From Pseudomonadota bacterium (GTDB taxonomy: Bacteria; Pseudomonadota; Alphaproteobacteria; Paracaedibacterales; CAIOTO01): a DNA stretch of 64,000 nt. Shown here piece by piece: positions 6,609 through 51,790 of the stretch; within the stretch, counting starts at the first letter, position 1; the number at the start of each line of letters is the position of its first letter. Where the stretch lies: positions 21,289-85,288 of the forward strand of contig JAZKDQ010000013.1 of the NCBI GenBank assembly GCA_040387495.1, written 5' to 3'. A program made the translations under genes and the position numbers. The notes beneath the pieces were generated by a model. It saw only the letters and a list, made by a program, of their open reading frames with translations, was not told the DNA's origin and searched no databases.

Positions 6609-6675
6609 TACGCACCCAGACGACGGATGATTTCCCATTCCAGCTTGGCGCACGACTATTTGAGTGCTTCTTAAA
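6609..6675 (-). pseudogene. Decayed duplicate of the murB 3' end
   Basis: 6613-6622 and 6626-6640 are identical to murB 9004-9013 and 9014-9028 (cacccagacg / gatgatttcccattc). 6642-6654 matches 9056-9068 at 12 of 13 positions. The copy has a 3-nt insertion and a ~26-nt deletion. It would read ...EWEIIRRLGA-stop versus murB ...EWEIIRLGE-stop. Confidence 0.75.
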
Positions 6676-6777
6676 AAGATGAGAAGTATATAGAAACAAT
6701 TTATTTACTTGAAATAAACATATTTATCCTATATAAAAATCATTAATAGAAATAAAAAATGAAATTAAGGAATTAAA

Positions 6778-49353: not shown

Positions 49354-49360
49354 AATGTTA

Positions 49361-51790
49361 TTACTTACTCAACACTTTCTGCGACGTCGTTGATTGAACC
49401 GTTGCCGGCAGCATCGGAATTGTACAGCGTACTTTTGTACCATGATTGACTTCTGATTCAAGTGCAAGCTGCCCATTATGCAGCTCTACTAAACTTTTTG
49501 CGAGTGTCAGTCCAAGACCCGCAGCGCCTGATTGCCCTGTTAGATTGAGTAAGCTTTGCTGGAACAGACGTGATTGATCTTCAGTAGAAATACCGATACC
49601 GGTATCTTCAACAATAATGTCGATGGCACCATTTGTTTTACTTTTATAGGCACCAAGCGTGATCCGCCCACCATTAGGGGTAAATTTTATCGCATTAGTC
49701 AACAAATTGAATAATCCATGTTTTAAGCGCCTCAGATCAATACGCAAAACATCGGATGCCACTTGGTTTTCCACAACAAGCTCAAGTCCTTGATCATTTG
49801 CACGGTTTTGCACGAGAACAAGCACACTGCCAAGCAGATGTTCAACTTGCACATCTTGATAATTCAAACTAATTTTCCCAGATTCAATGCTCGCTAAGTC
49901 AACCATGTCATTAATCAAATTCATTAAACGATCGGTGGATTCAGAAATACCTTTACAATAATCCAGTTGTTTCTCATTGAGTTTGCCAAAATATTGATTA
50001 AGCAGAATTTCGCTAAAACCAGCAATAGTGTTCAGTGGCGACCTTAATTCATACGACACATGTGAAATAAAATCAGATTTCAGACGATCTTCGCGTTCTA
50101 GCGTTTGGTTGCGCTCTTTAAGCGATCGTTCGAATCTCCATGTATCACTAATATCGATAAAGCTCAGTAGGTGGCTACCATCAGGTAAAGGCACGTAAGA
50201 ATATTCCAACATCTTATCTTTTTTGAGGCTAATACGTTGACGCTCAGGATTACGCCTTGAAATCACATCAAGCATTTTAGTGCGCCATGATTTGCTTTGG
50301 CGGGAATCTTTAAACTGACGCGAAACCACTTTTAAAATCTCATTAATATGAATCCCAACAGTGCGGTCATGTGGTTTCAATCCCCAAATATATTCCATTG
50401 CTGGATTTGATAAGCGCAATCGATAATCTATGCCAAACACAATAATACCTTCATAAAGGTGATCAATTGTTTCTTTTTGAACGGCTGTTAGCGTATTGTA
50501 ACGACGCTCCAATGCAAGCTTATCGGTAATGTTGTCATATAAATAAACAAGTCCACCCGTTGGCGTAGGTGCGATAACCAAACGACAAGTGACGCCATCA
50601 GGTTGATGCATGATTTCATGAAGTGGTTCCATGAGTGTATTAAATAATTCAATACGGCCACGTTTGTGTGCTTGAAAATTAGTGTATTCTGGCATCTTAC
50701 GTTTTTCACGCAAGTGCTCCATGATTTCACCAACTGTCGGTTTTGTAAGCAACCAATTTTCATCATGCTCAAACATAGTACGATATGCACTATTAAAAAA
50801 TTCAAGCCGCATATCAGAACCATAAACAGCAAGTGGCGTTGACAGGTAATTAAATACTTCAGCATTTGATTGTTGTGCCTGATATTTTTCTTTCTCAATC
50901 TCTTCGATTTCAGTTATATCAATGGCATAGCCAACCGTTTGTGATGAATCAGGAATTGGAATTTCAGCAAGTTCAAGAAAACGTCTTTCCCCAGCAATCA
51001 CAATATGCGTACGAATGCTGACTTTTTCTTTTCTCTGCAAAGCCCTCCTTGATAATTCATATGTACTAACTTCGCCATAACGATCCACGAGTTCACGGTT
51101 TTCCGCGATCACTCTGCTTATAGTTGTGTCAAGGGCACCTGCATACGCTAAATTACAGTATTGAATACGCCCATTATCATTGCGATACCACAAAGCCATA
51201 GGCGACACATCAGTTAGAATACGCAGCATTTCTAATTCATAATTTTTTGTTTGCTGCATAATATTAGATTTTGATTGCTCATTCAAACGCTTACTAATAT
51301 CACGAAAGCTAAGAATAACCATCTGTTGTGGCCCTAAAGACTTGCGATACAAACCAGGCGTGGGTGGTGGATCATATGGGACGCAACATCCATAAACTTC
51401 AAAATATTGATTGTCATCAAAAACATTGATTTCTAACGTGAAATTACCACCAAAAGATATAATATGCTGAAGTGCACGCTGAAATGGAGAGAGCGCAGAT
51501 TCACCAAAAATTTTCGCTACATCATGAACCTGAAAATGATAAATAGGATCAATTCGAAATTGATTTTTAAAAATATAAGATGTATTTACTGTTGTCTCGC
51601 CATCAATCCAGCAACACCAAGGCTGAGGCAATGCTTCAAGTATATTTTGACTTTGCAAAACATCAAGATTAAGTCGGTGATTTTCGAGCGATAGGCGCCA
51701 ATAGGCCTTATAATAATATGACGCAACACTTGCCATGACAATGGTCAAGCAAATTATTAGGACAAGTGCAATTATTAGTCCGTGCATCAT
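49361..51790 (-). CDS. Membrane-anchored PAS-domain sensor histidine kinase (PleC/DivJ-like); no adjacent response regulator
   Basis: 809-aa ORF with an N-terminal TM helix, several PAS-like segments, the H-box SHVSYELRSPLNTI, the N-box LLTNAIKFTPNGG, G1 EDTGIGIS and G2 GAAGLGLTLAK. Confidence 0.9.
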   Translation of the reverse strand: MMHGLIIALVLIICLTIVMASVASYYYKAYWRLSLENHRLNLDVLQSQNILEALPQPWCCWIDGETTVNTSYIFKNQFRIDPIYHFQVHDVAKIFGESALSPFQRALQHIISFGGNFTLEINVFDDNQYFEVYGCCVPYDPPPTPGLYRKSLGPQQMVILSFRDISKRLNEQSKSNIMQQTKNYELEMLRILTDVSPMALWYRNDNGRIQYCNLAYAGALDTTISRVIAENRELVDRYGEVSTYELSRRALQRKEKVSIRTHIVIAGERRFLELAEIPIPDSSQTVGYAIDITEIEEIEKEKYQAQQSNAEVFNYLSTPLAVYGSDMRLEFFNSAYRTMFEHDENWLLTKPTVGEIMEHLREKRKMPEYTNFQAHKRGRIELFNTLMEPLHEIMHQPDGVTCRLVIAPTPTGGLVYLYDNITDKLALERRYNTLTAVQKETIDHLYEGIIVFGIDYRLRLSNPAMEYIWGLKPHDRTVGIHINEILKVVSRQFKDSRQSKSWRTKMLDVISRRNPERQRISLKKDKMLEYSYVPLPDGSHLLSFIDISDTWRFERSLKERNQTLEREDRLKSDFISHVSYELRSPLNTIAGFSEILLNQYFGKLNEKQLDYCKGISESTDRLMNLINDMVDLASIESGKISLNYQDVQVEHLLGSVLVLVQNRANDQGLELVVENQVASDVLRIDLRRLKHGLFNLLTNAIKFTPNGGRITLGAYKSKTNGAIDIIVEDTGIGISTEDQSRLFQQSLLNLTGQSGAAGLGLTLAKSLVELHNGQLALESEVNHGTKVRCTIPMLPATVQSTTSQKVLSK

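Follow-up and report, generated by a model that had tools for sequence, protein, structure and literature searches.

Convergent orphan and core gene pairs in a Paracaedibacteraceae-group contig: variable junctions and displaced 3'-end copies of core genes

Six convergent junctions in the window and its relatives

This work concerns six gene junctions in a 64,000-nucleotide (nt) stretch of DNA, hereafter the window, from a metagenome-assembled alphaproteobacterium of the Paracaedibacteraceae (Holosporales) group (locus tags V4544_ in the metagenome-assembled genome). At each junction, an AT-rich accessory gene on the plus strand converges on the 3' end of a conserved core gene on the minus strand. 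The junctions of murB and parE also carry a displaced copy of the core gene 3' end, which is referred to here as a scar. The accessory gene between scar and functional gene is referred to as the cargo. The features are listed in Table 1. The window was compared with about 190 kb of related contigs (L-numbered loci, P0019, and P0048), all of which are metagenome contigs; P0019 and P0048 were compared by gene lists only. The GROS21 strain (contigs L005/L172 and L167) is 96% identical to the window, the relative represented by L171 and the P0048 contig is 87% identical, and L002 has about 84% nucleotide identity. Across these relatives, each junction is a variable spot that is empty, holds another orphan gene, or holds the same gene. 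Empty or alternative states were observed directly for five of the six junctions.

Table 1. Positions of the genes, spacers, and displaced copies at the six convergent junctions of the window (aa, amino acids)
Feature	Position	Strand	Remarks
murB scar (displaced 3'-end copy)	6608..6657	-	about 26-nt internal deletion and 3-nt insertion; reads ...LEWEIIRRLGA, then stop
723-aa orphan	6778..8949	+	cargo between functional murB and scar; GC 0.35; signal-peptide-like N-terminus; coiled-coil-like EKAKQA repeats
murB convergent spacer	8950..8998		49 nt; hairpin of -15.6 kcal/mol, z -3.5
murB	8999..9919	-	last ~220 nt (8999-9221) are the block duplicated in the scar
DUF2608 gene	21824..22645	+	signal-peptide-like N-terminus; missing in L169
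lolC/E-like permease gene	22723..24048	-	no scar
parE scar (displaced 3'-end copy)	29195..29275	-	begins at stop codon; 1-nt frameshift; ~81% identical to functional end
Tandem 22-nt unit TGGTGATAATTTCACCATTATG, two perfect copies	29349..29392	+	palindrome ATGGTGA...TCACCAT in each; 40 nt upstream of AAA_14/DUF4143 gene
AAA_14 + DUF4143 ATPase gene	29433..30635	+	cargo between parE scar and functional parE; very widespread family
parE spacer	30636..30696		61 nt; 15-bp hairpin then T-run, -18.1 kcal/mol, z -4.2
parE	30697..32712	-	last 80-90 nt are the duplicated block
1-kb block at nuoD	35679..36677	+	299-aa orphan (35742-36641, signal-peptide-like N-terminus) and GC-rich hairpin (36652-36675, z -4.9)
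nuoD	36678..37847	-	Pfam NuoD; no scar
518-aa orphan	40577..42133	+	signal-peptide-like N-terminus; 4-nt overlap with ubiG
ubiG	42130..42852	-	uninterrupted state in window
282-aa orphan	48505..49353	+	signal-peptide-like N-terminus; also adjoins the kinase in L172 and L174
PAS histidine kinase gene	49361..51790	-	GC 0.39; no scar

The junctions had been pointed out in a sequence-only reading of this DNA, and its coordinates proved exact, with gaps of 49, 77, 61, 36, -4, and 7 nt for murB, lolC/E, parE, nuoD, ubiG, and the histidine kinase gene, respectively. The core gene identities were confirmed by Pfam as MurB, an FtsX/MacB-type LolC/E-like permease, ParE, NuoD, a UbiG-like methyltransferase, and a PAS histidine kinase. 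The accessory genes are AT-rich as described (GC 0.33-0.38), and the GC of the core partners is 0.45-0.47 in five of the six and lower only in the histidine kinase gene.

The near absence of a spacer had also been put forward as a special trait, and this part does not hold since all nine convergent junctions of the window are short (269, 49, 77, 61, 36, -4, 7, 88, and 74 nt; median 61 nt). The median gap elsewhere in the window is 385 nt for divergent and about 110 nt for co-directional pairs, and the strand switches at 18 of the 49 junctions. Convergent pairs normally have short spacers. Of roughly 14 AT-rich orphans, about 7 converge on their downstream neighbour (a rough hand count and not a computed test). 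A seventh case of the layout, a 130-aa AT-rich open reading frame (ORF) that converges on mucR with an 88-nt gap, lies outside the range covered by the sequence-only reading.

These numbers bear on the explanation that nothing beyond normal gene packing is present, in which the reader selected the cases and the scars are just pseudogene remnants left by chance as the genome decays. For the spacers, this explanation holds (nine of nine convergent gaps are short), and about half of the AT-rich orphans lie outside the layout. It is also favoured by the terminator scan, which gave no signal above background, and by the ubiG scar of the window, which is at chance level as described below. What it has to account for is the scars of murB and parE, to which we return in the next section.

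Strong hairpins are present in three of the six spacers (murB, parE, and nuoD; Table 1) and no strong hairpin was found in the lolC/E, histidine kinase, or ubiG spacers. Among the three, a clear T-run beside the hairpin is seen at parE only. The consensus terminator scan was run over 29000-43000, a range that includes the parE and nuoD spacers, and called neither hairpin. The three hairpins probably end transcription of both convergent genes. The scans for tRNA genes, Rfam families, and consensus terminators gave nothing at the junctions. The sole RNA gene found in the window, tRNA-Ser(TGA) at 25390-25479 between petA and an MFS gene, is at none of the six.

The nuoD junction illustrates how variable these spots are. 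The 1-kb block is missing in L002, L005/L172, and L173. The GROS21 strain has 102 unrelated nt in its place, and no remnant of the 299-aa gene was detectable in this filler (L005). In the distant relative L175/L176, a 345-aa ortholog with 49% amino-acid identity occupies the same site, followed in L175 by a similar hairpin spacer. The 299-aa gene is thus old, fast-evolving, and variably present, because an ortholog of only 49% identity sits at the same site yet the gene is missing in a close strain. The nuoC-nuoD pair (36678-38488) itself stands separate from the other nuo genes. One relative has an opposite-strand 628-aa orphan between nuoC and nuoD, and another has an 824-aa orphan between murG and murC; in this clade, orphans thus interrupt even tightly coupled operon genes.

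At lolC/E, cvpA and the permease gene converge directly in L169 with a 77-nt gap (gene coordinates 14100 and 14178) and no DUF2608 gene. L169 also carries a 125-nt copy (74%) of the junction between a 105-aa gene and lolC/E (4514-4638 versus 15449-15572) beside petA, where those genes sit in the window. This copy is a rearrangement-breakpoint duplication and is not at a gene 3' end. At ubiG, the 518-aa orphan is kept in L002 (partial) and L172, and a co-directional GFO_IDH_MocA gene takes its place in L173/L174. At parE, the gene converges on an MFS gene in L002, a different 301-aa orphan lies 12 nt past the parE stop codon in L003/L004, and a 151-aa gene occupies the site in the P0019 contig. 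At murB, about 590 nt without cargo separate the gene from the ortholog of a 1065-aa gene in the P0048 contig and in L171.

The sequence-only reading had proposed that the insertions be dated by comparison with relatives. In this comparison, the ages vary widely: the 282-aa and 299-aa genes are common to relatives of 80-85% nucleotide identity, and the 723-aa gene was seen in this genome only.

Displaced 3' ends of core genes

The scars of murB and parE had been described as clear and both were confirmed as real. At murB, positions 6610-6643 match 9001-9031 with a 19-nt exact core (6622-6640 = 9010-9028). The local Smith-Waterman score is 43 against a shuffle null of 20±2.4, and 0 of 300 shuffles reach it. 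The functional gene ends in LEWEIIRLGE where the scar has LEWEIIRRLGA. The outgroup L171 has its native murB end at the position of the scar, and the DNA beyond the scar aligns with the native downstream DNA of the outgroup murB (L171 2395-2802 = window 6323-5918). The scar thus marks the original murB end because the outgroup downstream DNA aligns beyond it. The 49-nt spacer after the functional gene is not homologous to the sequence downstream of the outgroup murB. From this alignment, the functional murB end, its spacer, and the cargo would be the inserted material.

The GROS21 strain has a longer murB scar of 220 nt with about 80% identity (L167 12859-13078) and a different cargo, namely a SnoaL/GerE segment copied from beside a GT10 gene together with 100 nt of the GT10 3' end. 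A SnoaL remnant remains at the old site in this strain. The 723-aa gene was seen in the window's genome only; it preceded the cargo of L167 because L167 retains its last ~15 nt. Sliding identity against the outgroups showed just a strain-level allele patch in the last ~50 nt of murB. MurB scans of further genomes and metagenomes returned best matches of just 57-70% identity, which are unusable for comparison at the DNA level, and a tblastn gene-order comparison gave no useful synteny.

At parE, positions 29195-29258 match 30697-30761 with 81.5% identity (E=2e-9), and this pair is the only dispersed short repeat of the window by self-BLAST. Its Smith-Waterman score is 68 against a null of 20±2.2, which is reached by 0 of 300 shuffles. 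Apart from the one frameshift, the scar is still readable as a ParE C-terminus, and it is also present in L005, L006, and L172. The hairpin spacer (61-62 nt) is kept downstream of parE in L002 and partly in L003. Sliding identity against the outgroups showed no clear ancestry step near the 3' end. A duplication that includes the spacer was considered from spacer and flank homology seen by eye (also in L175), and it was dropped since shuffle tests refute that homology. The tandem 22-nt repeat upstream of the cargo gene looks like a putative operator for the AAA_14/DUF4143 gene.

At ubiG, a tentative scar had been suggested at 40543-40563. It is at chance level, as 24 of 300 shuffles score as high. 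At lolC/E, nuoD, and the histidine kinase gene, the absence of a visible scar was borne out by shuffle-tested local alignment.

Three further 3'-end duplicates were found in related contigs, hence the 3'-end scars are a real recurrent feature of the clade. The sequence-only reading had named the lack of any further 3'-end duplicates as part of what would refute it, and this part fails; even so, the scars point to ordinary recombination and not to a new system. The first is at ubiG in L172, where a two-gene insert of 1587 nt lies 7 nt before the ubiG stop and is flanked by a duplicated block of ~140-150 nt (140 nt aligned at 91% by BLAST; the counterpart is window 42137-42276). The scar is the in-frame short allele that is found in other strains and the functional copy is the long allele, with a difference of 12 nt. 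The second is at uvrB in L003/L004, where a convergent 751-aa orphan follows uvrB and is followed by a second copy of the last >=314 nt (at least 314 nt) of the gene. The third is in L175. Here a 610-aa gene precedes, in this order, DUF389, MscS, an IS6-family transposase, a 51-nt repeat of the 3' end of the 610-aa gene, and the native neighbour HIT.

The five scars (murB, parE, ubiG, uvrB, and the 610-aa gene) share one directly observed layout of core gene, cargo, and scar, with the scar oriented like the core gene. In all three cases with an outgroup (the 610-aa gene, murB, and ubiG of L172), the DNA past the scar is the native downstream sequence. With their inner ends, the duplicated blocks reach 51, ~90, 147, 220, and at least 314 nt into the gene, a length that differs from gene to gene. 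The outer end lies 0-7 nt from the stop codon in all four testable cases, and shuffle tests found no homology between the outer flanks of scar and functional copy in these four. All five scars are at 3' ends, and no 5'-end fragments were seen. A background control based on nearby direct repeats in 77 unrelated alphaproteobacterial loci was unusable, as paralogous Mur ligase genes of dcw clusters dominate it.

For the explanation by normal packing and debris, these scars are the difficulty. The murB and parE scars are highly significant and each lies one cargo gene from its source in the same orientation; three more of the same topology were met in ~190 kb of related sequence, together with the lack of 5'-end fragments. 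As an account of the scars, it is therefore given very little weight.

Origin of the junctions

We consider it fairly probable, if well short of certain, that the DNA of relatives was integrated by way of a single homologous anchor in a core gene and that selection then acted on the products, with no dedicated insertion system. The junctions would be transcription-unit boundaries in a scrambled endosymbiont-type genome, at which lineage-specific orphans are gained, lost, and exchanged. DNA of related strains would recombine with the chromosome and the conserved core gene would serve as the homologous anchor. Where both flanks are homologous, a traceless swap would result, and this may be the state at nuoD, lolC/E, and the histidine kinase gene. 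Where only the core gene is homologous, the incoming piece would bring the core 3' end together with the downstream cargo of the donor. The route would be either a single crossover of a re-circularised fragment or homology-facilitated illegitimate recombination, and the product would be the core gene with a new 3' end, the donor spacer, the cargo, the old 3' end as the scar, and the native downstream DNA. Selection would purge insertions that break the core gene or part a gene from its promoter; for this reason, survivors would cluster just past stop codons and leave 3' scars only.

Several observations argue for this reading. In the four testable cases, the duplicated blocks end at or near the stop codon and their outer flanks are unrelated, as would be expected of copies from two lineages that have the coding sequence in common but differ in its neighbours. 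The short and long ubiG alleles of L172 point the same way. A mosaic of identity was observed directly between the window and the GROS21 strain, where tracts of 100% alternate with tracts of 87-92% and dips lie beside the nuoD and murB junctions (tract examples, against L172/L005/L167: 36679-38100, 42317-42800, 31277-31476, and 8999-9050). This pattern indicates frequent homologous recombination with more divergent relatives.

The sequence-only reading had offered two accounts of the layout, and the comparison separates them. Site-directed acquisition at gene 3' ends is not supported: there is no recombinase, the ends are not shared, the block lengths are unequal, the ages vary, and orphans are also present at divergent junctions. 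A site-specific system is unlikely because the cargos hold no recombinase, and neither their ends nor the length or motif of the repeats recur from case to case. The other account, strong selection on the sites at which an insertion is tolerated, agrees with the data. Scars are at 3' ends only, and in co-directional pairs the insert abuts the stop codon of the upstream gene and leaves the upstream region of the downstream gene intact (murB; nuoD).

Orphans are not confined to convergent sites. In relatives they also split nuoC from nuoD and murG from murC or occupy divergent regions, and orphans at divergent junctions include Ank420 and a 600-aa gene (window) as well as an LRR gene (L005). Ank420, an ankyrin-repeat gene (42923-44185, 420 aa, GC 0.37), lies between ubiG and DUF218 and is missing in L172, L173, and L174. 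It is a counter-example to insertion at 3' ends only because it lies in a divergent promoter-side region.

The same duplications could instead have been made within one genome and with no donor, in the manner of long target-site duplications. The end of the core gene would have undergone a staggered double-strand break that was filled in, or a replication template switch, and 50-300 nt would have been copied to both sides of the captured DNA. Direct repeats bracket the cargo in all five cases, as this would produce. The L172 ubiG copies are alike outside one indel patch and both carry a GAAGATC variant that the window does not have, and the murB scar of L167 is nearer to the murB of its own lineage (~80%) than to that of L171 (74%). 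Random staggered breaks would, however, ignore the stop codon, whereas the outer end of the block lies 0-7 nt from it in four of four cases with unrelated flanks. Two further points do not fit copying within one genome: the indel of the ubiG scar is in frame and equals a natural short allele, and the functional murB is followed by a non-native spacer. We regard this origin as rather unlikely.

The cargos could also be decayed islands that an integrase once inserted at attachment sites in core gene 3' ends (islands are known at tRNA, tmRNA, and guaA), with a replacement 3' end, and that later lost the integrase gene. The classical signature of such islands is a direct repeat of a gene 3' end around foreign DNA, and repeats of this kind are found at two loci of the window (murB and parE) and at three loci of relatives (ubiG, uvrB, and the 610-aa gene); in addition, the murB repeats hold different cargos in two strains. 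The content of the cargos speaks otherwise. None of the six cargos of the window has an integrase, recombinase, or transposase domain by Pfam or NCBIfam, and among the Pfam matches of the relatives' cargos there is no recombinase; the sole transposase, of the IS6 family, is that of L175. The repeat lengths and the target genes all differ and share no core, and the cargos have just one or two genes (about 1-2 kb). At parE, the ancestral spacer is found beside the functional copy, contrary to the prediction from integration at attachment sites. Decayed islands are accordingly judged improbable.

Integration by a single anchor faces evidence of its own to the contrary. The two ubiG copies of L172 are exactly alike outside the 12-nt indel patch, which would also result from a recent self-duplication and one later mutation. 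No genome with the predicted donor arrangement was found, for example one in which ubiG ends in GWLQMN and the 323-aa and 137-aa genes come next. At parE, the spacer that adjoins the functional copy is of the ancestral type, and eamA instead of the ancestral MFS neighbour follows the scar; the locus thus needs an extra, unobserved rearrangement. The restriction of the scars to 3' ends (five of five) would be due to selection. There is ascertainment bias, since three of the five scars are in loci that were fetched on account of this finding, and the material is indirect, with metagenome contigs and ~190 kb in place of whole genomes. A more far-reaching form of the single-anchor reading, in which integration from co-resident relatives is the main route by which genes of orphan secreted proteins are exchanged at housekeeping loci and C-terminal displacement acts genome-wide, is held only tentatively and is more doubtful than not.

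Comparison with known systems and nature of the cargos

The junctions are best read as a new instance of known processes and not as a new insertion system. The closest process is single-anchor recombination, of the homology-facilitated illegitimate or Campbell type, which has one anchor and one non-homologous junction and places DNA beside the anchor, as proposed here. In Escherichia coli, 56 of 60 single-anchor recombinants had an anchor duplication of 109-950 bp, via a single crossover of re-circularised DNA (PMC3240628). The five cases here also have a direct duplication of the anchor around the insert, and the sizes overlap (51 to at least 314 nt versus 109-950 bp). The blocks here are sharply bounded at their inner ends. 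Classical homology-facilitated illegitimate recombination usually yields a deletion, whereas duplications are seen here. The events here are also read from the natural genomes of an uncultured endosymbiont-like clade and were not watched directly.

A second resemblance is to the rhs, cdiA, and type VI secretion system effector loci, where C-terminal displacement leaves orphaned 3' regions and the same recombination mechanism has been proposed (PMC5361080). The topology is identical, with a gene body, a new 3' end, a cargo, and the displaced old 3' end. The difference lies in the genes. Those loci have a variable toxin 3' end and an immunity cargo, whereas the C-termini here are those of conserved MurB, ParE, and UbiG, and an unrelated orphan, in many cases encoded on the other strand, forms the cargo.

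Islands at the 3' ends of tRNA, tmRNA, and protein genes also place foreign DNA right after a conserved gene and are flanked by a repeat of its 3' end. Their flank arrangement, in which the native flank goes with the distal repeat and the element adjoins the functional gene, is present at murB, ubiG (L172), and the 610-aa gene and not at parE. The junctions differ from such islands in that they have no integrase and no common core sequence, and their cargos are one or two genes. Tn7-like elements likewise insert right after a conserved gene (downstream of, e.g., glmS). Here, however, there are no TnsABCD/TniQ genes and no terminal inverted repeats, the duplications are 51 to at least 314 nt instead of 5 bp, and no fixed distance is kept, as the insert positions range from within the coding sequence to 62 nt past the stop.

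Pangenomes have hotspots of gene flux between core genes, which hold varied accessory genes or none and exchange them via homologous recombination in the flanking core genes. The junctions resemble these since a given intergenic position is empty in some related genomes and occupied by varying accessory genes in others. They differ in having single orphans instead of islands and in the fragmentation of operons, of which the isolated nuoC-nuoD pair is an example.

With these results, the candidate new insertion system is removed, and the layout follows from convergent packing, selection on the survival of insertions, and recombination between strains. The scars are read as single-anchor recombination events that occurred naturally in the housekeeping genes of an uncultured amoeba-symbiont-like lineage, and resident and imported copy can be told apart in them. 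They could help to date and follow how fast-evolving secreted proteins, which are likely host-interaction factors, are exchanged in genomes that are inaccessible to experiment. If the single-anchor route were true genome-wide, the trail of 3'-end scars could be dated and gene flux in uncultured endosymbionts could be reconstructed.

Signal-peptide-like N-termini, read by eye and with no predictor, are present in five of the six accessory proteins and in the 600-aa orphan (1-2 Lys/Arg, 12-18 hydrophobic residues, then small residues; starts at 6778, 13103, 21824, 35742, 40577, and 48505). No match to a functionally characterised family was found for the five signal-bearing accessory proteins; one of them, of 273 aa, matches DUF2608 only. 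For four of the five, 5.8 billion proteins gave no more than a handful of homologs, and the sixth accessory protein is the AAA_14/DUF4143 ATPase. By their sequences, the orphan proteins look like fast-evolving secreted proteins of a host-associated bacterium.

The ParE of the window is a member of a 90%-identity protein cluster that includes Candidatus Paracaedibacteraceae. The gene content of the window, with MucR/Ros, ProQ, a mitochondrial-type Rieske protein, ankyrin and patatin proteins, DUF2608, and the isolated nuoC-nuoD pair, fits an alphaproteobacterial endosymbiont-type genome with fragmented operons.

Eleven inserts were compared and no common ends, inverted repeats, or shared sequence were found, save for a repeat that is specific to the GROS21 strain. 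This repeat of ~146 nt is present there in at least five copies of 98-100% identity (L005 758-903, 18465-18610, and 20148-20293; L167 11921-12077; L172 12134-12279). Two copies are within the murB and ubiG cargos, and the repeat is absent from the window. It may be a miniature mobile element. The window has a truncated IS6/IS240-family transposase gene (152 aa; 56401-56859, also 56804-56959) with an intact homolog in L175 (3723-4361), and an end-like repeat lies beside the murB scar in L167 (12688-12843, 84%).

Very AT-rich ORFs without family matches are present in the window at 57277-58041, 54223-54615, and 61559-62191 (GC 0.25, 0.29, and 0.31, respectively). Two pairs of tandem paralogs were also identified, namely RlpA-like DPBB+SPOR proteins at 58331-59221 and 59287-60174 (78% nucleotide identity) and cadherin-like/Big_9 proteins at 254-1315 and 1636-2583 (71%).

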